From: an uncultured Verrucomicrobiota bacterium
GTDB taxonomy: Bacteria > Verrucomicrobiota > Verrucomicrobiia > Limisphaerales > CAZFVY01
DNA length: 64,000 nucleotides
Reading direction: 5' to 3'
Assembly (NCBI GenBank): GCA_964522665.1
Contig: CAZFVY010000008.1
Location: 29,655 to 93,654 of the forward strand
Shown: piece after piece, positions 2,891 to 53,736 of the stretch
Position numbering within the stretch: the first letter of the stretch is position 1
Layout: each line of letters starts with the position of its first letter
Position numbers and translations under genes: made by a program
Notes under the pieces: model-generated
Told to the model about the DNA's origin: nothing
Database searches by the model: none
What the model saw: only the letters and a program-made list of their open reading frames with translations

Positions 2891-4432
2891 ATGCCCGTAA
2901 TCGACGCCTCCGATAAGCGCCTCAGAACTGGATTGATACTCCTGGTGGCGGCGCTCTGGCTCGGGTTGTGCAACCAACTTCGGGTCGAGTGGTCGATCAA
3001 CTCGCAATACAGCTACGGCTGGGGGGTGCCGCTGTTGGGCCTTTATCTGTTTTGGAAACGCTGGCAGTGCCGGCCCGACCCGCAACCCGGCCCCACGCCG
3101 ACCAGCGCGGCCTTGGCGGCGCTCGTTTTGCTCTCCCTTTTGCTGCCGGTCCGACTCATCGAGGAAGCCAATCCGGATTGGCGGCCGGTAAGCTGGCTCT
3201 ATGCCCTGATGGTCACGAGCCTGACCTGGCTGGCGGTCTGGTACACCGGCGGGCGGGCGTGGGGACGGCACTTTTTTGTGCCGATCGTGTTCATGCTCGT
3301 GGCGGTCCCGTGGCCCACGCCAATTGAAGAGTATTTCATTCAGGGGTTGATGCGCGACGTTGCCGGGGCGACGGTCGAGGCCCTCAATTGGTTGGGTATC
3401 CCCGCGGTGCAGCAAGGCAATTTGATCAAGCTGCCGTCCGGCGTGATTGGGGTGAGCGAAGCCTGCAGTGGCGTCCGGTCGTTTCAGGCGACGTTGATGT
3501 CCGGCATTTTTCTGGGTGAACTGTATCGATTTGGCCGAAGGCGGCGGCTGCTCTTCGTATTCCTGGCGGCCGCGATGGCGCTCGTCTTCAACTTCGTGCG
3601 GACCTTTGCCCTCACCTGGATTGGGGTTCGAAACGGAACCAGCAGCCTGCTCTCCTGGCACGACCCGGCGGGCTATTTTGTCTGGATGTTGGCCTTCTTT
3701 GTCCTGTGGATCATCGCCGCGCGTTGGCGGGGAGCGCGCTTCGAAGTGATGCCGGCGCCGTCAGTCCGCGGGAGCCGGCCGCGGCGCCTGCCAGCTCTGG
3801 CGCTGATCACCGTGGCGGTCTGGCTGCTCGCCGTGGAGGGGCTGACCGCGGCCTGGTATCGCTCGCACGAGTCGGGGCTGGTGCTCAATCGAGCGTGGAC
3901 CCTCGAATGGCCGAAGCAGGACCCCGGGTTTCATTTCGAGCCGATCCCCGAGGAAGTGCGGTTGATCCTCCGCTTTAACACGGGGCAGAATGGGGTCTGG
4001 GACCGGAAAGACGGAACCCGGTGGCTGATGTATTATTTCAAATGGTCGCCCGGCCGGGCGGCGGCGCAATTGGCGGCGAACCATTCGCCGGTCGCCTGCC
4101 TGCCGGCCAGCGGCCTAACCCTGGTGTCGGAGGACGGCTGGCGCAAGGTCGCCGCGGATGGATTAGAGCTGCCGTTTCACGGGTATGTTTTTGATAACCA
4201 TGGTGAGCCGTGGCACGTCTATTTCTGCCTTTGGGAGGATCGGTTTTCCGTGCAAAACGGACCGGAACGAGGCGGCGATTTCGGGCGCTGGAGCCGGCTC
4301 AAGGCCGTGCTCGACGGTCGCCGGCATCTCGGCCAGGAGGTGCTCGAGATCGCCATCCTCGGCGCCCACGACCCGGCGACCGCCATGGCGCAAATGCGCG
4401 CGGAACTGCCGAAAATGATCCATTTGCGGTGA
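2891..4432 (+). CDS. exosortase-family transpeptidase with a ~200-aa C-terminal soluble extension (possibly EpsI-like)
   Basis: Polytopic membrane N-terminal half carrying the exosortase motifs VSEACSGVRS (Cys), FNFVRTFALTW (Arg) and SWHDPAGYF (His). The ATG at 2891 is preferred over the TTG at 2861. Confidence 0.75.
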   Translation: MPVIDASDKRLRTGLILLVAALWLGLCNQLRVEWSINSQYSYGWGVPLLGLYLFWKRWQCRPDPQPGPTPTSAALAALVLLSLLLPVRLIEEANPDWRPVSWLYALMVTSLTWLAVWYTGGRAWGRHFFVPIVFMLVAVPWPTPIEEYFIQGLMRDVAGATVEALNWLGIPAVQQGNLIKLPSGVIGVSEACSGVRSFQATLMSGIFLGELYRFGRRRRLLFVFLAAAMALVFNFVRTFALTWIGVRNGTSSLLSWHDPAGYFVWMLAFFVLWIIAARWRGARFEVMPAPSVRGSRPRRLPALALITVAVWLLAVEGLTAAWYRSHESGLVLNRAWTLEWPKQDPGFHFEPIPEEVRLILRFNTGQNGVWDRKDGTRWLMYYFKWSPGRAAAQLAANHSPVACLPASGLTLVSEDGWRKVAADGLELPFHGYVFDNHGEPWHVYFCLWEDRFSVQNGPERGGDFGRWSRLKAVLDGRRHLGQEVLEIAILGAHDPATAMAQMRAELPKMIHLR

Positions 4433-4453
4433 ATCGCGAAGACCGCGGCCACG

Positions 4454-6169
4454 ATGTCAAGCCCGCCCCCAGCCTATCCCACCCCAGCCGCGACGCCTCG
4501 GTTGCAACGATCCTGGCTGGCGCTCGCGCTGGTCGGAGTGCTGGCGTTCGCGGCGTTGCTGGCGGCCCGGCCGACTTATCGCGCGGTCAAGCGGTGGCGC
4601 GCGCGCGGCCTGGCGGATCAGGCGGAAAAATTTCTCCTCGCGCAAAAATGGAAAGAAGCGTCTGAAAAGGCGCAAGCCGCCTACCAATTGAATCCCGTTG
4701 ACCCACGGACGCTCCGCGTCGTCGCGCGCCTGTATGCCGACTCGGGCAACGAACTCGCGCTCAGTTTCTGGGATAGTCTCATCGCGATGGGCCAAGCCAC
4801 CCCGGACGATCGTCGTGCCTTGGTTCGATTGGCGCTGCAACTGGGCCGCTTGGAACCGGCCGCCAAGCAGATTGGCCCGCTGCTCGAATTGGCGCCGGAC
4901 GATGGCCCGACTCTGGAACTCGCGGCGGACGTGGCGGCCGCGCAAGGCGATTTGGCGGCCGCCCTGAAATACGCCCGGCGCGCCACCGCCCTCGAACCCG
5001 GCCAACCGGCGCCGCAACTGGCGCTCGGCCGCCTGCTCCTTGCTTCAACGAACGTCGCCGACCAGGCCGAGGCGCGCCGCCTGCTCCTGCCGCTGGCCAC
5101 CGGCCGGGACCAGAACGCGTTGGACGCCTTAATTCTGATGACGCGTCTGCGGGACCTTACCTGGCCGGACGCCACTTTTCTCGTCGAACGCCTCACGCGG
5201 CATCCCTTGACGACGGTCGATTACCAAACCCAGGCGGCGGAACTGTTGATTCGGCAACGCCCCGCGGAACGGACGCGCTTCATCGATCGCCTGTTGAACG
5301 AGTACCGCGTCGCCGAGCCGAAGGAACGCCTGGCGCTGGCGCGCTGGCTCAACGCGCAGAAGGAATACGGGCGTTTGCTCGACTGGATTCCGTTGAACGA
5401 GGCCCGGCAGGATCGTGACCTTTACATGCTCCGGCTGGACGCCCAAGCGGCGCTCGGCCGCTGGGCCGAAATCGGCGAAACGTTGGAGAGCAAACCGACC
5501 CCTTTGGAGGGTTGGGTGACTGAACTTTACCGGGCGCGCGTCGCGCAGCAAACCGGACAGACGGAAGAGGCCGCATTGCAGTGGCGGCGCGTGCAATTGG
5601 ACGTGCCGCGCAAGGCGGCGACCCTGCGCTACGTGGCTCAATACGCGGAACAAACCGGCGAGCTTGACGAGGCCACGAAAGCGTATCGCCGCCTGGCCGA
5701 GCTGCCCGAAAGCGCCGCGGACGCCTACGCCGGCCTGATGCGATTGGCGGATCGCAACGGCTCGACCCGGACCGCGCGCGATCTGGTCAAGGAGTTTACG
5801 CGGATCGCGCCCGACAACGCCTTTGCGCGCGCCGATCTCGCGTATCTGAATCTGCTGCTCGGGGACGACGTGCCGGCGGCGGCCGAGGTGAGCCGCCAGC
5901 TTTATGAGAGCAACACTAATTTCGTCGCTTATCGGGTGACGCGCGCGCTCGCGCTGTTCGAGCTAAAGGAAACCAAGAACGCCCAACGGTTGTTGGCGGC
6001 GACGACGAACGATTGGTCCACGGCGCCGGCCGGCTGGCAGGCGATCCGCGCGGCGATCATTGGCGGCGCCGGAGACGCGACCGAAGCCCGGCGCCTGGCG
6101 CGCGCCATCCCCGCCGACCGCCTCCGTCCGGAGGAACGCGATTTGCTTCAACCGTGGGCGGCGCCGTAA
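4454..6169 (+). CDS. TPR-repeat protein with an N-terminal membrane anchor
   Basis: N-terminal hydrophobic helix (WLALALVGVLAFAALLAA) followed by degenerate 34-aa helical TPR-like repeats. It starts 21 nt after the exosortase stop. Confidence 0.6.
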   Translation: MSSPPPAYPTPAATPRLQRSWLALALVGVLAFAALLAARPTYRAVKRWRARGLADQAEKFLLAQKWKEASEKAQAAYQLNPVDPRTLRVVARLYADSGNELALSFWDSLIAMGQATPDDRRALVRLALQLGRLEPAAKQIGPLLELAPDDGPTLELAADVAAAQGDLAAALKYARRATALEPGQPAPQLALGRLLLASTNVADQAEARRLLLPLATGRDQNALDALILMTRLRDLTWPDATFLVERLTRHPLTTVDYQTQAAELLIRQRPAERTRFIDRLLNEYRVAEPKERLALARWLNAQKEYGRLLDWIPLNEARQDRDLYMLRLDAQAALGRWAEIGETLESKPTPLEGWVTELYRARVAQQTGQTEEAALQWRRVQLDVPRKAATLRYVAQYAEQTGELDEATKAYRRLAELPESAADAYAGLMRLADRNGSTRTARDLVKEFTRIAPDNAFARADLAYLNLLLGDDVPAAAEVSRQLYESNTNFVAYRVTRALALFELKETKNAQRLLAATTNDWSTAPAGWQAIRAAIIGGAGDATEARRLARAIPADRLRPEERDLLQPWAAP

Positions 6170-28866: not shown

Positions 28867-29700
<834 letters not shown>

Positions 29701-45903: not shown

Positions 45904-47376
45904 TTGAAAATGATACGCAAATCTCTCTCCTTATTGCTTTTCACTTGCCTGGCCGCCGGCCTGTTCGCGCCGGCCGTCAACGCCGCGGGCCCGGCAGACC
46001 AACCTTTCCTGCACCCGTTATTCAGCGACAACGTGGTCCTGCAACGTGGCATCCAGATCCCGGTGTGGGGCTGGACCGAGCCCGGCAAGGAAGTCACGGT
46101 GCGCTTGGGCGGTCGGGCGACGACCGTGGTGGCGGACGCGGACGGCAAATGGATGGCCAAGCTAAACCGCTTTCGCGCGGGCGGCCCCTATACGATGACC
46201 GTCGATGGGCTGGAATCGGTAACGCTGACCAACGTCATGATTGGTGACGTCTGGCTCTGTTCCGGCCAGTCCAATATGGAAATGGGCGTCCAAAAGGCGT
46301 TCGACCCGGCGAACGAAGTCGCGCAGGCCGATCATCCGAACATTCGTCTTTTCACCGTCCCGAAAGTGATTGCCCGGACGCCTCAATCCACCGTCAATGG
46401 GCGCTGGCTCCCTTGCAGCCCGGAGACGATCGTCAAAGGAGTTTGGGGCGGATTTTCGGCGGTCGGTTATTTCTTCGGTCGCGATCTCCACCGGGATTTA
46501 GGCGTGCCGATTGGACTCATTCATAGTTCCTGGGGCGGCACTCCCGCCGAGGCCTGGACCAGCGCCGAGGGATTGAAGACGATGGCCGACTTCCGGTCCG
46601 CCGTGACGCAGTTTCAGGAAGCGGCGGCGGGGCAGACCGGACCCGTCACCAACAATAATCCCAACGTCACGACTGTGCTTTACAACGGCATGATCGCGCC
46701 CCTCATCCCCTTCGGCATCAAAGGGGCGATCTGGTATCAAGGCGAGTCCAACGCTTCACGGGCTAAGCAATACCGCACGCTGCTGCCGACGATGATTCGG
46801 GATTGGCGCGATCGTTTTGAGGTCGGCAATTTTCCGTTCTTGATCGTCCAATTGGCCAATTTTCAACGCGTGAAACCCGAACCCGCCGAATCGTCCTGGG
46901 CCGAATTGCGGGAGGCGCAATCGATGACCGCGCAAAATGAACCTAATGCCGGTTTGGCGATCGCCATCGACATTGGCAACGCGGTTGACATCCATCCCCG
47001 CAACAAACAAGAAGTCGGCCGGAGGCTTGCGTTGACCGCGGAAGCGATCGCTTACGGCAGACACGTCGAATACTCGGGGCCGGCGTATCGTTCGATGAAG
47101 ATCAAGGGGAACATGATCCGGCTTAGATTTGATCATGCGAAAGGCGGATTGGTGGCTAAAGGCGCGAAACTCGAGGGTTTTGCGATCGCCGGGAGTGATC
47201 GGCATTATGTCTGGGCGGACGCCACGATCGACGGCTCGACCGTCATCGTCTCTTCACCCAAGGTGGCCAACCCGGTTTCCGTTCGCTACGCCTGGGCTGA
47301 GAATCCGGTTTGCAACCTTTACAACAAAGCTGATTTGCCCGCGTCGCCCTTCCGCACGGAAGAAAAAGCGCCGTAA
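45904..47376 (+). CDS. sialate O-acetylesterase-like SGNH/DUF303 carbohydrate esterase, secreted
   Basis: Signal peptide, GDVWLCSGQSNME, GAIWYQGESN and a C-terminal beta-sandwich; 490 aa. Confidence 0.7.
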   Translation: MKMIRKSLSLLLFTCLAAGLFAPAVNAAGPADQPFLHPLFSDNVVLQRGIQIPVWGWTEPGKEVTVRLGGRATTVVADADGKWMAKLNRFRAGGPYTMTVDGLESVTLTNVMIGDVWLCSGQSNMEMGVQKAFDPANEVAQADHPNIRLFTVPKVIARTPQSTVNGRWLPCSPETIVKGVWGGFSAVGYFFGRDLHRDLGVPIGLIHSSWGGTPAEAWTSAEGLKTMADFRSAVTQFQEAAAGQTGPVTNNNPNVTTVLYNGMIAPLIPFGIKGAIWYQGESNASRAKQYRTLLPTMIRDWRDRFEVGNFPFLIVQLANFQRVKPEPAESSWAELREAQSMTAQNEPNAGLAIAIDIGNAVDIHPRNKQEVGRRLALTAEAIAYGRHVEYSGPAYRSMKIKGNMIRLRFDHAKGGLVAKGAKLEGFAIAGSDRHYVWADATIDGSTVIVSSPKVANPVSVRYAWAENPVCNLYNKADLPASPFRTEEKAP

Positions 47377-47506
47377 CGACAAACCGCATACTACTCCGTT
47401 TTCGCGAGCAGGAACCGGCGGTGAGACTGTTCTCTACCCCCATTACCGACACGCGGGTCGCCGGGGGCGCCGCGACAACTTCCCCAGCGAGCGACGTATT
47501 TAGATT

Positions 47507-48694
47507 TTACTGCGCTTCCACCGGGTCCTCCATCAACGCGTTGAACAACGATTGCGGGGACGCCGGGGCGAATTGGCCCGGGATGCTCTGGCCGCCGGAA
47601 AGGTAGAGGATCGGAAGCTGCGCTCCGAGCAGGAGATTCCAGAATTTGCTCCACCGCGTCTCTTCATCAAGGTGACTCAGGATGACCCCGGTGATCGGCA
47701 GCGCGCTAAAGATGCGCGATTGCGCCAGCAAGTGACCTAGGTCGTAAGCCGCGTTCAACACCAAAAAGACCTGGGCGGGACCGATTTCGCGGAGCAGCTT
47801 GCCGACCGATTCGAGACTGACGGCGTCGTCCGTGGGCACCCCGGGAAGGTCCACAAATTGGATGCCGTGATCGCCGCCGGCCAATTCCGGGTTCCAGACG
47901 CGCTCGACCGGAATCCCGAGAATTTCCCCGTGAATGCTGAGAAACTCGGCGGTGTTGGCGGTGTGGCCGTCGAGACGCCAGACGCGCGTGGACTGGGTGC
48001 CTAACAACGCTTCCTGCGTGAGCCATTTGCAGAGACAGGTGCTCTTGCCAACTCCCGGCGCGCCGACCAGCGCCCGCACGCCCGTCGGCGCGATTTGCGC
48101 CCGCGCGGCCAGCCGGTTCCAGTATTGGAGTAGGAATTCCTGCACTAGAGCGAACTCCTCGCGCAAAGTGCCGGGCCGCGCCCCGCCCGACTGAGTATGC
48201 ACCTGATCCACCAGCCACTGCGCGTGCAACGGCAACACGCCGAGATTCTCCAGCATGCGCGTTAATTCCCATTCCGGTCCGGGCGAGGACGCCACGACGG
48301 GCGCGGGCGGTTCCGGCGCCCGGCGCCCTGGGTGTGGGATGGGCGACCGCATCGGCCGGGCGGTCGGCCGCTCCGCGGCGGTCAAGGGACGACGCGCGGG
48401 CGCCGGCGGTTCCGCCATCGCCCGAGCCTCGGGGATCGGCGCCGCGACTTGCCGTTGCAAGGCGTCCAGCTTGCGATTCAGCCGCGCAAACGTCTCCCGC
48501 TCCGTTTCTTGCGGAGCGCTCGGACGTTCGGGAACGGTGGCTTGGACCTCGATCTGGGGCTTCTTCCAGATGCGGCTCAATCCCGGCGCCGGCGTCTTGC
48601 GAATGTTGACGATGATCGCGTCCGGTCCCAGTCGGCGGTGAATCTCCGCCAGCGCCTCCGCCGCCGAATTGGCCAGAATGGTGACGATTTTCAT
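47507..48694 (-). CDS. flhF: flagellar biosynthesis GTPase FlhF
   Basis: N-terminal MKIVTILANSAAEALAEIHRRLGPDAIIVNIRK, a Pro/Ala-rich B-domain and an SRP-type GTPase (LVGAPGVGKST...DLPG...LSHLDE). The ATG at 48694 lies inside track ORF ..48742. Confidence 0.85.
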   Translation of the reverse strand: MKIVTILANSAAEALAEIHRRLGPDAIIVNIRKTPAPGLSRIWKKPQIEVQATVPERPSAPQETERETFARLNRKLDALQRQVAAPIPEARAMAEPPAPARRPLTAAERPTARPMRSPIPHPGRRAPEPPAPVVASSPGPEWELTRMLENLGVLPLHAQWLVDQVHTQSGGARPGTLREEFALVQEFLLQYWNRLAARAQIAPTGVRALVGAPGVGKSTCLCKWLTQEALLGTQSTRVWRLDGHTANTAEFLSIHGEILGIPVERVWNPELAGGDHGIQFVDLPGVPTDDAVSLESVGKLLREIGPAQVFLVLNAAYDLGHLLAQSRIFSALPITGVILSHLDEETRWSKFWNLLLGAQLPILYLSGGQSIPGQFAPASPQSLFNALMEDPVEAQ

Positions 48695-48826
48695 CGGAAT
48701 CGCCGTCCCCGCAGTTCTTGCGCCGTCCCCTCGACCGCGCATCGACGCTCCGTTGCGACGAAGAAACCGTCACACTCTTCCATCGGATAAGGACACCTCA
48801 CGAATGAAATGAATTGCGTTTCCAAA

Positions 48827-49483
48827 TTAGGCTAACGGACCCGCTTGGCGTTTTCGTCGAGCAATTCCCTTTCCGGGGCCGCTTGAGTCTAAATCCTGGT
48901 CGATCCCCAAGATCAACACTGGAATATCGATGTTTGAAACGCCCCGCTTCTCAAGGTCCCAAACGAACTGCTCAAAGTAGCTCACTCCGCTGCTCATCTC
49001 TTCAGCCAACGTTTTGACCGGGACGATCTCAATACCAGTATCGATGTGTCCAAGGTTTTTGAAAATCGTCATTTTCGCCGCGACGTTATACACCATGAAA
49101 GAATACTTGCCGAACTGCACTTCAATTCCCAGTCTGCGCTTAATAAAGTCCATTTCTCGGAATGCCCCTCGCCGAAGGTCCTTTGGCGTGTAGCCCTGAG
49201 TGTAAAACCTCGTCGGATAGTCACATTTTACCCGCAGAGATTTCCATTCACGCTTGAAAAGTATCTCCTTGAAACATTCATTGAGGGCGACGGGAGAGAA
49301 AAGCATCGTGCCGGGCATCGATTTCTCTTTGCTTTCTTTTGTTCTGCACGCCAAGGCATCGATAGCCTTAATCGCATCTTTGACCTCCACAAGGAGGTCT
49401 GGATATATTGATTCAACTACGCTCTGCCCATCGTTAAACGAATAAATTCCGGCTATTCGCACGTTTTCTCCTCCTGTAACCAT
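48827..49483 (-). CDS. type IIP restriction endonuclease, BglII/BamHI fold
   Basis: REMDFIKRRLGIEVQFGKYSF reproduces the BglII D-x8-E-x-Q catalytic spacing (recalled BglII: DFGKRDTLVEVQF). The later IEIVPVK...IPVLILGI resembles the BglII/BamHI C-terminal strands. An alternative GTG start at 49462 is preceded by GGAGGAG. Confidence 0.6.
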   Translation of the reverse strand: MVTGGENVRIAGIYSFNDGQSVVESIYPDLLVEVKDAIKAIDALACRTKESKEKSMPGTMLFSPVALNECFKEILFKREWKSLRVKCDYPTRFYTQGYTPKDLRRGAFREMDFIKRRLGIEVQFGKYSFMVYNVAAKMTIFKNLGHIDTGIEIVPVKTLAEEMSSGVSYFEQFVWDLEKRGVSNIDIPVLILGIDQDLDSSGPGKGIARRKRQAGPLA

Positions 49484-50433
49484 TCCTTGGGAATCTGTGC
49501 CACTTTCTCGGTTCCCTTAGGCTGCCACACTGGCTTGCCCAGCGGTCGGTAGGGAAGGTCCCCGCTCAAGAGGAGGTTCATTCTGTACCTCGCCTCGTCA
49601 ACGTATTTCTGTTCGCGTTCGCAACCCATCGCCCTCCGTTTATGACGCACGGCGGCTAGCATCGCCGACCCGACCCCTGAGAAAGGGTCGAGGACCCAAT
49701 CACTCTCGTTTGTCATGGCCAGAACGCACCGTTCCACGAGTTCGATTGGAAATTGACACGGATGAATGGTTTTCTCCGGATGATTGGCTTTAACATTTGG
49801 GATACTCCAGAGGCCGACTTCCCATTCCTTGGCCATCAGTTTCCAAATGTCACTAGGGTTCTTGCCAAGGGGATTTCCAGACGGCAGTCCGTAATTGGGG
49901 CCTGGGCGAAAATTGGTTTTGCCCGGATACTTGGAAGGCACTCGAACCGGGTCCAAATTGAACGTGTACTCTTCTCCCTTGGTAAACCAGAGCAAAGTCT
50001 CGTATCGACCAGAAAACCTTACGGAACAATGCAAACCGTGATCGAATGTCCAAATAATGCGGTTACGAAGCTGGAGTCCGAGCTTCTTAAATATCGGATA
50101 AAACCAAATGTCGAGCGGGAATACCTCCGCCTTATCGACGTAATTTCCGACCTGCCAACAAAGTGAACCGCCATTCGCCAAAACACGAACCAACTGTTCC
50201 AATATTGGCTGGAGCTCGTCGAGGTAGCGTTCCAACTTCACCGCGACTTCGTACTCCTTGCCAATATTGTACGGCGGGGAAGTTATTATGAGCTTTGCGA
50301 ATCCGTCCGGGCAAGTTCTGAGCGTGTCGAAAGATTCACCGACCGCAAACACGATTTCAGCGGTCGCATCGAAACGGTCGGCGATGGCCCGACGATCTTC
50401 CTCGAACAACGACGGTTGAACTGTCTTAGACAC
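49453..50433 (-). CDS. beta-class DNA methyltransferase (SPPY motif IV; probably N4-cytosine)
   Basis: N-terminal motif IV IITSPPYNIGKEY and C-terminal motif I VLDPFSGVGSAMLAA, which is the beta permutation. It overlaps the nuclease ORF by 10-31 nt. Confidence 0.85.
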   Translation of the reverse strand: MSKTVQPSLFEEDRRAIADRFDATAEIVFAVGESFDTLRTCPDGFAKLIITSPPYNIGKEYEVAVKLERYLDELQPILEQLVRVLANGGSLCWQVGNYVDKAEVFPLDIWFYPIFKKLGLQLRNRIIWTFDHGLHCSVRFSGRYETLLWFTKGEEYTFNLDPVRVPSKYPGKTNFRPGPNYGLPSGNPLGKNPSDIWKLMAKEWEVGLWSIPNVKANHPEKTIHPCQFPIELVERCVLAMTNESDWVLDPFSGVGSAMLAAVRHKRRAMGCEREQKYVDEARYRMNLLLSGDLPYRPLGKPVWQPKGTEKVAQIPKEWLQEEKTCE

Positions 50434-50521
50434 AGGCGGAGCCTATCACCTTGCGTCGATCAGCGTCAATCGCGGCAGGCGTCGTTTCACGGTCAAAATG
50501 GAGCGTTTGCCTCTGCGCGGC

Positions 50522-52654
50522 CTACCCCATCGCCGGAATCGATCCCGCGGACTGCAGGTCGATTCGGGGGGGCAGTTCTTCGTAGGCGAGAAAGGCGAGT
50601 TCGGGGAAATTCGCGGAGAAGAATCGGCGCAGACCGAGGCGGATCACCGCGGAACAGATCAGTACTGGGGGACGGCCTTCGGCGAGCATCGGTTGGACGG
50701 CGCGGGTCAGGTGGTAAGTGATGTGTTGCGCCATCTTGGGGTCGAGGAAAAGCGCGGTTTCATTCGGCGTTTGCCGGATGCCTTTCGCGATTTCTTCCTC
50801 GAGCCACGGGTCGATCGTGATCGATTGCAAGGCGCCCAATTCGTTCTGGTAATTCTTGACGATCTGCGGACCGAGGGCGCGGCGCGCCTGCTCAGCCAAC
50901 TCGTCGGGATTCTTGGTGACCGCGGCCGAGTCCGCGACTTTTTCGAGGATGCCGACCAGGTTGCGGATCGATACGCCCTCACTGAGGAGGTTTTGCAGGA
51001 TGCGCTGAATCTGTCCGGTGTTCAGCAGCGCCGGCACCAATTCGTTGACGAGCGCCGGGTGATTGGTCTTGAGGTTTTCGAGGAGCACTTGGACGTCCTG
51101 ACGGCTGAGCACCTGATTGCAGCAGCGTTTGATCGTTTCGCTGAGATGCGTCACGAGGACCGAGGCGGCATCGACGATGGTAAAACCAGCGATTTCCGCG
51201 TTCTTTCGCTCGACTTCGTTGATCCAGGTGGCCGGAAGTTGGAACACCGGCTCGGTCGTGGGAATACCGTGGAGCACGACTTTGCTGTTGCCGGTGTTCA
51301 TCGCGAGCAGATAGCCCGGCTTCACTTCCCCGCGGGCGATCATGTGACCGCGCAGGAGGAATCGATATTCGTTGGAACCTAACTGCAAGTTATCGCGCAA
51401 CCGAATCGGCGGAATGACGAAGCCCATTTCCTGGACGAAATTGCGCCGCACGCCGGTGACCCGCTCGAGCAAGTCGCCGCCCTTGCGTGAATCCGCGAGC
51501 GAGACCAACCCGTAGCCCAATTCGATCTGAAGGGTATCGACGTTGAGCAGAGCCTCGAGCTTCTCCGGCTGAGCGGGACGCGCGCCCGCGTCGGCCGGTT
51601 TGGCTCCCGCCGCGTCTCCGGCCGCGGCTCCGGCCCCCGCCGCCGCGGGACCAAAATCCATCGGCGCCGTCGGGTTGGTCGCCAGCCCGCTGCGCTTCAG
51701 GAAGTAGTACATCACGTAAAAAACGCCCGACAACGTGACGAACGGCAGGAACGGCAGCCCGGGCGCCAAGCCAAGGACCAACATCGAAGCCGAGAGAATC
51801 GCCAGCACGCGCGGATAGAAAAACAACTGTTTGGTCAGGCTGAAGCCGAGGTTTTCCTTCGCGGCCGCGCGCGTCACCAGGATACCGGCGGCGGTCGAAG
51901 TGATCAGCGCCGGGACTTGCGAGACCAGACCGTCACCGATGGAGAGGATCGTGTAGCGTTGGAGCGCGTCCACTAGCGGCATCCCCTTTTGCAATACCCC
52001 GATGCCGAAACCACCCAAGACGTTGATCATCGTGATCAGGATCGCGGCGACGGCGTCCCCGCGGACGAATTTGCTGGCGCCGTCCATCGCTCCGTAAAAA
52101 TCGGCTTCCTGCTGCACCGCCATGCGGCGGGCGCGGGCGACATCTTCCTTGATCAGGCCGGCGTTGAGTTCGGCGTCGATGGACATCTGCTTACCGGGCA
52201 ACGCGTCCAACGTAAACCGAGCGGCGACTTCCGCGATACGGCCCGCGCCCTTCGTAATGACGATGAAGTTAATGACCGTCAGGATGAGGAAGACGACGGC
52301 GCCCACGACGTAATTGCCGCCCACGACGTAATTGCCGAAGGCGTTAATGACCTGGCCGGCATAACCGTTGAGGAGAATCAGTCGCGTCGAGGCGACGTTC
52401 AACCCCAGACGAAACAGCGTTATCACCAGCAGCAAGGTCGGAAATCCGCTGAACGCGGAGGCCTCCTTCAGGTACAGAATGACCAACAGAATCAGCATCG
52501 ACAACGCGATGCTCAAGCTCAAGAGGAGGTCCAGCAGGAACGCGGGCACCGGCTGGATCAGCAACAGCAAGGTGCCGAACAGGAAGACGACCAATCCCAG
52601 ATCGCCGTAACTCCAGAATTTCTTGACTGGAGCGCTGAGGGAGGCCGAACTCAT
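50522..52654 (-). CDS. flhA: flagellar type III export gate protein FlhA
   Basis: 710 aa; TM domain with FPTLLLVITLFRLGLNVASTRLIL and GNYVVG, plus a cytoplasmic FlhA_C domain. Confidence 0.95.
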   Translation of the reverse strand: MSSASLSAPVKKFWSYGDLGLVVFLFGTLLLLIQPVPAFLLDLLLSLSIALSMLILLVILYLKEASAFSGFPTLLLVITLFRLGLNVASTRLILLNGYAGQVINAFGNYVVGGNYVVGAVVFLILTVINFIVITKGAGRIAEVAARFTLDALPGKQMSIDAELNAGLIKEDVARARRMAVQQEADFYGAMDGASKFVRGDAVAAILITMINVLGGFGIGVLQKGMPLVDALQRYTILSIGDGLVSQVPALITSTAAGILVTRAAAKENLGFSLTKQLFFYPRVLAILSASMLVLGLAPGLPFLPFVTLSGVFYVMYYFLKRSGLATNPTAPMDFGPAAAGAGAAAGDAAGAKPADAGARPAQPEKLEALLNVDTLQIELGYGLVSLADSRKGGDLLERVTGVRRNFVQEMGFVIPPIRLRDNLQLGSNEYRFLLRGHMIARGEVKPGYLLAMNTGNSKVVLHGIPTTEPVFQLPATWINEVERKNAEIAGFTIVDAASVLVTHLSETIKRCCNQVLSRQDVQVLLENLKTNHPALVNELVPALLNTGQIQRILQNLLSEGVSIRNLVGILEKVADSAAVTKNPDELAEQARRALGPQIVKNYQNELGALQSITIDPWLEEEIAKGIRQTPNETALFLDPKMAQHITYHLTRAVQPMLAEGRPPVLICSAVIRLGLRRFFSANFPELAFLAYEELPPRIDLQSAGSIPAMG

Positions 52655-53736
52655 GGCGTCACCTTCTGCCCTTCAACGTAATACCGGAACCGGTTGACGC
52701 GATAAACATACGCCAGCACTTCGGCCACCGCCGTGTACATCGCCGCCGGGATTTCCTGCCCCACTTTGCAGTGCTTGAACAAGAACTGCGCGAGCGGTTT
52801 GTTTTCCACAATCGGAATCTTGTATTCTCCGGCCAACTCGCGCAAGCGCAACGCATTCAAACGGGCGCCTTTCGCCACGATGCGCGGCGCTTTCATGGTT
52901 TTGCGGTCATAACGCAGGACGATCGCCAAGTGCGTCGGGTTGGTTATGACCACATCGGCCTTCGGAACTTCCTGCGTCCATTTCTGGCGCAGGATGGCCA
53001 TGCGCCGCTTGCGAATTTCACCTTTGACCAGCGGGTTGCCTTCCGTGCTGCGCGACTCTTCCTTGACTTCCTCCTTGCTCATCATCAGGTCCTGCTGGTT
53101 CTTCCAAAATTTGTAGGCGTAGTCGGCGCCGGCGACGAAGATCATGCCGACGAGCACCCGGGTGCAAATCGACTCCACGGTCGTCACCATGAACTGCACC
53201 ACCTGGCTGAAGTCGGTGGCCGAGTAAAAAATCGGATGGTTCAACAAACCGCGGATGACCGAATAGGTAAAAGCGAAAATTACCAGGAATTTCATGAGCG
53301 AAATTCCCAGGCGGACGATCGAGGGCAGCGGGGCGAAGAATTTCTGGGCGTTCGCCACCGGGTTCAATCGATCCAGATTGAAGCCGATCACGCTGGTCGT
53401 CAGATGAAAACGGCTTTGCAGGCCGCCCGCGATGATGCCAGCAATCGGCACCGCGACGAGCAACGGGAAGACGCACGCGCCCAGCCAGCCGATAAAGACC
53501 GCAAAATACATTTCGACCGAGGTGGTCGAAACGGTCAGGCGGCCCAATTCACCCAGGATTTGTATCATCGAGCCGCTTAAAGTCTGCGAGATCGTGTGGG
53601 CCTGCGAGCTAAGCGTCATCAACCCCGCCCCCAGCACGCAAACCGTCTGGATTTCGGGGCTGCGGGCAAACTGACCTTTGCCCATCGCCTCCCCGGCGCG
53701 CTTCGATGTCGGTTTTTCTGTCTTCTCGCCGTCCAT
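52651..53736 (-). CDS. flhB: flagellar export protein FlhB
   Basis: MDGEKTEKPTSKRAGEAMGKGQFARSPE and the NPTH autocleavage site (VVITNPTHLAIVL). Confidence 0.95.
   Translation of the reverse strand: MDGEKTEKPTSKRAGEAMGKGQFARSPEIQTVCVLGAGLMTLSSQAHTISQTLSGSMIQILGELGRLTVSTTSVEMYFAVFIGWLGACVFPLLVAVPIAGIIAGGLQSRFHLTTSVIGFNLDRLNPVANAQKFFAPLPSIVRLGISLMKFLVIFAFTYSVIRGLLNHPIFYSATDFSQVVQFMVTTVESICTRVLVGMIFVAGADYAYKFWKNQQDLMMSKEEVKEESRSTEGNPLVKGEIRKRRMAILRQKWTQEVPKADVVITNPTHLAIVLRYDRKTMKAPRIVAKGARLNALRLRELAGEYKIPIVENKPLAQFLFKHCKVGQEIPAAMYTAVAEVLAYVYRVNRFRYYVEGQKVTP

Follow-up and report, generated by a model that had tools for sequence, protein, structure and literature searches.

Within a 64-kb stretch of contig CAZFVY010000008.1 from an uncultured Verrucomicrobiota bacterium (positions 29,655 to 93,654; hereafter the window), a bare two-gene restriction-modification (R-M) unit is found between the flagellar genes flhA and flhF. 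We consider it highly probable that this cassette, which consists of a DNA methyltransferase gene (M) and a Type IIP restriction endonuclease gene of the BglII/BstYI family (R), was acquired horizontally, was inserted into the flhA-flhF spacer of a fliPQR-flhBA-flhF cluster and is likely active on RGATCY sites. The open reading frame (ORF) list of the window gives the gene order on the minus strand as fliP, fliQ, fliR, flhB, flhA, M, R and flhF, with ~1.8 kb separating flhA from flhF. The original prediction of a co-directional R-M pair between these two genes holds in all its features and positions, the relevant elements being the following.

52651-53736, minus strand: flhB (PF01312 FlhB, 6e-102)
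50522-52654, minus strand: flhA, flagellar export gate of 710 aa (Pfam FHIPEP, 1e-255), the upstream boundary of the insertion
50434-50521, minus strand: flhA-M spacer of 88 nt from the flhA stop to the M start, GC 0.61
49453-50433, minus strand: M gene, beta-class N4/N6 DNA methyltransferase of 326 aa (PF01555, 2.2e-46)
49468-49474, minus strand: GGAGGAG Shine-Dalgarno sequence of R, within the 3' end of M and 5 nt before the GTG (direct reading)
48827-49483, minus strand: longer R ORF of the ORF list, the true start being a GTG further in
48827-49462, minus strand: R gene, BglII/BstYI-family Type IIP restriction endonuclease of 211 aa from the GTG (PF09195, 2.8e-19)
48830-48895, minus strand: C-terminal tail of R, 22 residues (190-211), delimited by homolog alignment
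48695-48826, minus strand: R-flhF spacer of 132 nt, the first ~50 nt AT-rich and the remainder host-like
47507-48694, minus strand: flhF, flagellar GTPase of the signal recognition particle type, 395 aa from ATG 48694 (TIGR03499, 5e-22, and PF00448)
48760-50360, no strand: low-GC block marking foreign DNA, 80-nt windows mostly 0.40-0.55

The nuclease matches PF09195 with 69.9 bits (gathering cutoff 26), its residues 20-195 covering positions 3-163 of the 163-position profile. In a search against all PDB sequences, BstYI (1sdo) is the best match with an E-value of 1.6e-37 and an alignment from residue 2 to the end, while BglII reaches 6.7e-9 and BamHI 0.7; the identity between R and BstYI is 39% (BLASTP). 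PADLOC assigns R to REase_II (1.9e-41) and files both cassette genes as Type II R-M components. The block EMDFIKRRLGIEVQF of R contains D105-x8-E114-x-Q116, and these residues align to D119/E128/Q130 of BstYI and D84/E93/Q95 of BglII and are invariant in an alignment of 11 R homologs. The alignment also places K119 of R opposite K133 of BstYI and S158 opposite S172, which are reportedly positions of outer-base recognition in BstYI and the ones changed when its specificity was subjected to directed evolution. The BglII-type spacing of the active site, which the original prediction had pointed out, is thereby confirmed, and the proposed relationship to BglII stands at the level of fold and family, as seen from the PF09195 and PDB matches. 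It does not stand for the nearest characterised enzyme, which is BstYI and not BglII, and the predicted recognition site is consequently the degenerate RGATCY. BstYI recognises RGATCY (PMC2731914), and R most likely cuts R^GATCY in the same way.

The start of R is placed at the GTG at 49460-49462 because the alignment with BstYI begins at Met1 (MRIAGIYS in R and MRIVEVYS in BstYI). Gene callers in independent assemblies give exactly the same protein of 211 aa from this GTG, and the strong GGAGGAG described earlier was indeed found in front of it, at a gap of 5 nt. Since the M stop codon TAG occupies 49453-49455, R begins inside M with an overlap of 10 nt (49453-49462). At the other end, most R homologs are 189 aa long and terminate in …LILGIDA/V, and the tail of 22 residues in the present R is unique. 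Its G+C content at third codon positions (GC3) of 0.41 is unlike that of host or cassette coding sequence and resembles non-coding DNA. Variable C-terminal tails of 8-21 residues occur in other R homologs too, and the present one likely arose from a displaced stop codon near the downstream junction.

The methyltransferase matches PF01555 with 159 bits (gathering cutoff 26.7) and is assigned to MTase_II by PADLOC (2e-67). Its motif order, with IITSPPYN near residue 50 (motif IV) and DPFSGVGS near residue 250 (motif I), is that of the beta class, so that the SPPY/FxGxG enzyme proposed for this ORF is confirmed by profile and motifs alike. Its nearest solved structure is the N6-methyladenine (m6A) enzyme M.RsrI (3e-21), and the N4-methylcytosine (m4C) enzyme M.PvuII reaches 2e-7, which leaves the assignment of the modified base ambiguous. 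As a rule of thumb, the SPPY motif favours m4C. M most likely protects RGATCY, probably as N4-methylcytosine in view of this motif. The order M then R, with both genes abutting or overlapping, recurs in the homologous loci L017-L020, L021-L024 and L026. With M first, its last 10 nt overlapping the start of R, and R equipped with its own strong ribosome-binding site, the overlap, which is conserved in the family, would tie nuclease synthesis to prior translation of the methyltransferase.

The insertion itself becomes apparent from related genomes. Searches with FlhA and FlhF yielded eight distinct verrucomicrobial loci (L001, L002, L003, L004, L005, L013, L015 and the distant L006; L004 is duplicated by the records L011 and L012, and L013 by L014), and six of them (L001, L003, L004, L005, L013 and L015) include enough flanking sequence. 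Identity of the relatives to the window is 64-79% for FlhA and 50-58% for FlhF. In all six loci flhF directly follows flhA, as had been expected for these genes, with a non-coding spacer of 33-270 nt between them, and no M or R homolog is present at the junction in any of the six. In the window, neither flhA nor flhF is truncated, and both align over their entire length with the genes of the relatives, reaching 77-79% amino acid identity across the whole of FlhA. The blastn homology to the relatives extends as far as 50535 and sets in again at 48697, and the closest foreign cassette (L017, 72% nucleotide identity) is homologous over 50412-48927. From these two sets of limits, the inserted DNA measures 1.49-1.84 kb, and its junctions lie within 50413-50534 and 48698-48926.

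In addition, the composition of the cassette differs from that of its surroundings. Sliding windows give a GC content of 0.475-0.525 across ~48800-50400 versus 0.58-0.70 in the flanks, and M and R have GC3 values of 0.60 and 0.58, respectively, compared with 0.75-0.80 in fliR, flhB, flhA and flhF, in agreement with the lower G+C that had been counted by hand. The L017 homologs, which reside in another host, have a GC3 of 0.63 (M) and 0.56 (R), matching the cassette. More than 5,500 homologs of R and at least 8,000 of M were found. Among the best hundred of each, identities are 70-84% (74-84% for M), and the named sources comprise Planctomycetota, Candidatus Brocadiia, Phycisphaerales, Deltaproteobacteria and Verrucomicrobiae. 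This cross-phylum identity is far above that of the flanking FlhF, which is at most 60%. For example, L021 (a Verrucomicrobiae metagenome-assembled genome) and L023 (a Brocadiia contig) carry the bare, overlapping and co-directional M-then-R pair amid housekeeping genes: at L021 a hypothetical gene and, before that, recA lie upstream and glnD lies downstream, and at L023 an aminoacyl-tRNA synthetase gene lies upstream. No mobility genes were found near either pair. Besides that, the pair is carried by IMG/VR viral contigs (L026, with 77% identity for R and 79% for M) and by small plasmids of 8-17 kb in Spirosoma and Acinetobacter, so that plausible vectors exist. Altogether, the empty relatives, the foreign composition and the closest homologs in other phyla, viruses and plasmids support the horizontal acquisition that had been proposed.

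With regard to the mode of insertion, the flhA-flhF interval contains no genes other than M and R, and the cassette has no integrase, transposase, tRNA or phage gene next to it. It leaves no space for further genes, and its outer neighbours are host genes conserved in the relatives, or housekeeping genes. Direct repeats shared by the two spacers reach at most 9 nt, a length equalled in 646 of 1000 shuffles, so that both the ORF list and the shuffle-tested repeat search return the earlier result of no mobility gene and no clear flanking repeat. A 23-nt inverted repeat, imperfect and with its arms divided between the two spacers, was considered as a pair of element ends or a split hairpin and was rejected as a chance match after shuffling; the best inverted repeat is reached in 101/1000 shuffles. 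Since the repeats in the spacers are no better than those of shuffled sequences, the long target duplications of one mode of mobile R-M units are not seen here. The cassette does correspond to the category of R-M units inside operon-like clusters, as the flanking genes are adjacent in the relatives and their coding sequences are undisrupted here. Illegitimate recombination without target duplication is the most likely insertion mechanism. The target was probably the variable non-coding flhA-flhF spacer, and both flagellar genes are intact.

The host DNA itself carries a matching signal. Under a maximal-order Markov model, RGATCY occurs 19 times in the 64-kb window versus 42.8 expected (P 3.6e-5) and is the most depleted of the 32 palindromic hexamer classes with R/Y flanks, the next class having a P of 0.04. 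The depletion extends to AGATCT (4 vs 7.1 expected), GGATCC (6 vs 15.0) and AGATCC/GGATCT (9 vs 20.7), and the four RGATCY hexamers occupy the four lowest ranks among the 16 NGATCN contexts, while GATC itself is near expectation (410 vs 441). In ~96 kb of relatives without the cassette, RGATCY is found 93 times versus 95.1 expected. RGATCY makes up 4.6% of the GATC sites in the window versus 16% in these relatives (Fisher P 6e-9). Such a depletion would be expected if an RGATCY-specific nuclease had long exerted selection in this lineage. Compared with the L017 homologs, a fraction of 0.83-0.93 of the bases is identical at codon positions 1 and 2, but only 0.38-0.39 at position 3, a contrast indicating strong purifying selection on M as well as R. 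As a separate observation, other palindromes in the window are far more depleted than RGATCY, namely GTCGAC (1 vs 30.8), CAGCTG (0 vs 6.6) and GGGCCC (3 vs 14.8). In the relatives, depletion is milder for GTCGAC (7 vs 19) and CAGCTG (13 vs 26), and GGGCCC is not depleted. Further R-M pressures of SalI-, PvuII- and ApaI-like specificity on this genome are thus suggested.

Several points weigh against the reading of an inserted unit that is active on RGATCY. Other carriers of close homologs, of which 44 kb were available, show a pooled RGATCY count of 17 versus 23.4 expected (ratio 0.73, P 0.11); by carrier, and in small samples, the ratio is 0.37 for L023 and about 1.0 for L021 and L025. The depletion in our host comes from 64 kb only and may reflect an earlier or different enzyme directed against RGATCY, GGATCC or AGATCT. 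There is also a tension between the unameliorated GC3, which suggests a recent arrival, and the site avoidance, which suggests long exposure; the avoidance could predate this particular cassette. Concerning the nuclease, identity to BstYI is limited, specificity shifts within this fold among BamHI, BglII and BstYI, and the tail that sets R apart from its homologs may have an effect of its own. Concerning the insertion, neither spacer shows homology beyond the ORFs to the flhA-flhF spacers of the relatives or to the flanks of foreign cassettes, so that the junctions are only bracketed, to ~120 and 230 nt. A search of 5.8 billion proteins together with scans of genome and metagenome contigs returned no FlhF more than 60% identical beyond the same strain. 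As the next FlhF is only 60% identical, the databases searched offer no same-genus empty site, and by this comparison the insertion is dated only to after the divergence from family-level relatives.

A scan for sigma-70-like sites and T-run terminators found no terminator and no sigma-70 promoter consensus on the minus strand of either spacer; such consensus scans are blind to non-sigma-70 promoters and to terminators without a T-run, which counts on the side of the objections above. Inspection of the spacers by eye gave no convincing match to sigma-54 or sigma-28 motifs, and compared with shuffled sequences the RNA folding of neither spacer is unusual (z = +0.63 for the 88-nt and -1.1 for the 132-nt spacer). 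Of the three observations named beforehand as contrary to a horizontally acquired R-M unit at this junction, namely a host-like cassette in the relatives, a nuclease unrelated to the BglII fold and a terminator/promoter pair isolating the cassette, none was made. Read-through is plausible because of the co-orientation of all genes, the spacers of 88 and 132 nt and the lack of a recognisable terminator or promoter in them. Transcription continuing from the flagellar cluster thus probably accounts for at least part of the expression of the cassette, as far as the arrangement of the genes allows a judgement.

A transcriptionally autonomous cassette is a serious alternative, with a chance that we place somewhat below even. 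In this case, M and R would be driven constitutively by a promoter located either in the 88-nt spacer or within the 3' end of flhA, flhF would have a promoter in the 132-nt spacer, and flagellar regulon and restriction would be uncoupled. R-M stability normally needs a steady supply of methyltransferase, which argues for some constitutive expression and would make a conditional flagellar operon risky with regard to self-restriction. Just before the M start there is a weak TTGACG-N18-TAGGCT element, with a TG upstream, but its -10 hexamer matches at only 3/6 positions, the consensus scan recognised no sigma-70-like promoter in either spacer, and the sequence between flhA and M has no counterpart in other cassettes. 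For flhF, the spacers preceding the gene in the relatives reach up to 270 nt, and for Pseudomonas putida an internal PflhF promoter is described as supplementing PflhA (PMC6424431). One relative, L004 (= L011, L012), furthermore tolerates an antisense insert within the cluster: ~2.4 kb on the opposite strand between fliQ and fliR (3626-6125), with ORFs at 4409-5392 (327 aa, signal-like N-terminus) and 5329-5949 (206 aa) and a GC content slightly above the surroundings (0.57-0.58 vs 0.50-0.52). The flagellar export cluster has thus been interrupted independently elsewhere in the family and is not necessarily one obligatory transcript.

Turning to the specificity of R, it is unlikely that the recognition site is a subset or neighbour of RGATCY, for instance AGATCT, GGATCC or a different hexamer that contains GATC. 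The modest 39% identity to BstYI leaves some room for such a shift, and BamHI, BglII and BstYI share a fold while using distinct recognition strategies (PMC2731914). However, BstYI is by far the best solved match (1.6e-37 versus 6.7e-9 for BglII and 0.7 for BamHI), the under-representation in the window includes all four RGATCY hexamers, the rarest of the 16 NGATCN contexts, and a second PF09195 enzyme, R.Nph3I, has been shown experimentally to cut RGATCY (PMC10734518).

Somewhat less probable still is an inactive pair, in which the nuclease would be crippled by its C-terminal extension or M would serve as a solitary epigenetic enzyme. The 22-residue tail of R, absent from most homologs, could point in this direction, as could degraded copies of the family elsewhere: a 5'-shortened R call in L019 (1908-2333), M without R in L016 (1709-2944), amid small ORFs and a WGR/DNA-ligase gene, and in L025 (6040-7570) an intact R beside an M split between two frames. 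In our host, however, neither ORF is truncated, the catalytic and S-adenosylmethionine-binding motifs are intact, the cassette shows no variation in five assemblies, other homologs tolerate variable C-terminal tails of 8-21 residues, and RGATCY is depleted in the host. The R-M system therefore appears active, as far as purifying selection, intact catalytic residues and RGATCY-depleted host DNA can indicate.

The weakest candidate for the expression of the cassette goes in the opposite direction from autonomy. It is very doubtful that the cassette is promoterless and expressed only in the flagellar export transcript, with restriction capacity tracking flagellar synthesis. If this were true, cells would be armed exactly when they show flagella, the receptor of flagellotropic phages, and post-segregational killing by the R-M pair would protect the flagellar cluster, flhF included, from being deleted. 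As an exclusive mode, such functional coupling of restriction to flagellar expression is unlikely.

An ancestral position of M and R at the junction, with loss from all sampled relatives, is highly improbable. The nearest FlhF outside the same strain is at most 60% identical, which leaves this scenario without a same-genus comparator in the databases searched, but it would need loss in every sampled relative lineage, each time leaving only a short non-coding spacer. Moreover, the GC3 of the cassette is ~0.2 below that of the host and equal to that of homologs in other phyla, and homologs from other phyla are 70-84% identical, far more than the flanking FlhF. That the junction is an assembly or binning chimera has a negligible chance: although the source sequence is metagenome-derived, independent assemblies of four other samples contain exactly this flhA-M-R-flhF arrangement (ERZ27245399, ERZ27245402, SRR8543846 and JGI 3300028563; L007-L010) from three repositories or pipelines (ENA, Logan and JGI), with 99.97-100% nucleotide identity to the window. 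The cassette is invariant across the five assemblies, and since the same junction recurs in these samples, the cassette is no artefact and is fixed in an environmentally recurring strain.

The inserted R-M unit can be compared with several known systems. In BglII (AGATCT) and BamHI (GGATCC), the alpha/beta core of the PD-(D/E)XK type and GATC-centred palindromes are shared with R, at much weaker similarity. The BglII and BamHI operons carry a controller (C) gene; the present cassette has no room for a third gene, and control here appears to be exerted by the M-R overlap instead of a controller gene. BstYI of Geobacillus stearothermophilus Y406 (R^GATCY; structures 1SDO, 1VRR and 2P0J) shares the PF09195 fold and an end-to-end match from Met1 with R. 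It differs in 61% of the residues, in a loop of ~14 residues (around 84-115 of BstYI) that is shorter in R, and in lacking the extra tail of 22 residues. Unlike the source of BstYI, the present host is a mesophilic environmental verrucomicrobium, and the specificity of R is a predicted one. The Nph3I system of the Nitratiruptor phage NrS-3 is described as a self-contained mobile R-M unit, in which a PF09195 nuclease cuts RGATCY and M.Nph3I produces RG(6mA)TCY (PMC10734518). R.Nph3I is blocked by 6mA and BstYI is not. By description rather than by sequence, the Nph3I system resembles the present cassette in pairing a PF09195 nuclease with a methyltransferase. M.Nph3I is an m6A enzyme, whereas the SPPY motif of the present M suggests m4C; both m6A and non-m6A partners are known for RGATCY nucleases.

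By genome comparison, Furuta, Abe and Kobayashi (2010, NAR 38:2428) described Type II R-M units inserted in operon-like clusters (PMC2853133). Like these units, the present cassette is a bare R-M pair with no mobility gene of its own and with intact neighbours, but the long target duplications that flank the cases they emphasised are absent here. The target also differs, being a flagellar type III export cluster. In the literature searched, we found no description of an R-M unit at the flhA-flhF junction.

The flagellar surroundings of the cassette deserve a separate look. The minus-strand cluster ends with flhF, which also bounds the insertion on its downstream side. TIGR03499 aligns from residue 17 of a longer ORF of 411 aa, which places the true flhF start at ATG 48694, and the FlhF proteins of the relatives align from residue 1 of this start (395 aa, MKIVTIL…). 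The automatic gene calls of public assemblies put the start at ATG 48742 (411 aa). Right after flhF, ~1.3 kb from the R-M cassette, synteny breaks a second time (45904-47507), marking a rearrangement breakpoint. In L001, L003, L004 and L015, flhF is followed by a co-directional FliW-like ORF, two flagellin genes and a gene for a KOW-domain protein, whereas in the window flhF faces convergent SASA-domain and PALP genes, and no fliW or flagellin homolog was found anywhere in the 64 kb. L003 (CAMAWP010000001.1) is labelled 'Akkermansia muciniphila' yet contains a full fliPQR-flhBA-flhF-fliW-flagellin cluster with an FlhA 77% identical to that of the window, and it looks mis-assigned.

The families of M and R, their gene organisation and the insertion of R-M units into operon clusters are all already documented, so that this case adds one more ordinary instance of a familiar type of horizontal transfer and leaves the current understanding of R-M mobility and flagellar gene organisation unchanged. 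Specific to it are the flhA-flhF target, the absence of an insertion signature and the matching avoidance of RGATCY in the host. It thus provides a clean, bounded example of a minimal R-M unit in the gene cluster of a conserved machine, without mobility machinery or target duplication, and fixed in an environmental population. For the abundant and uncharacterised environmental clade of BstYI-like enzymes, with its thousands of homologs, it offers a testable prediction of specificity (RGATCY, probably with m4C protection). At the same time, it could serve as a ready-made natural system for finding out whether a flagellar transcript can carry foreign defence genes along.

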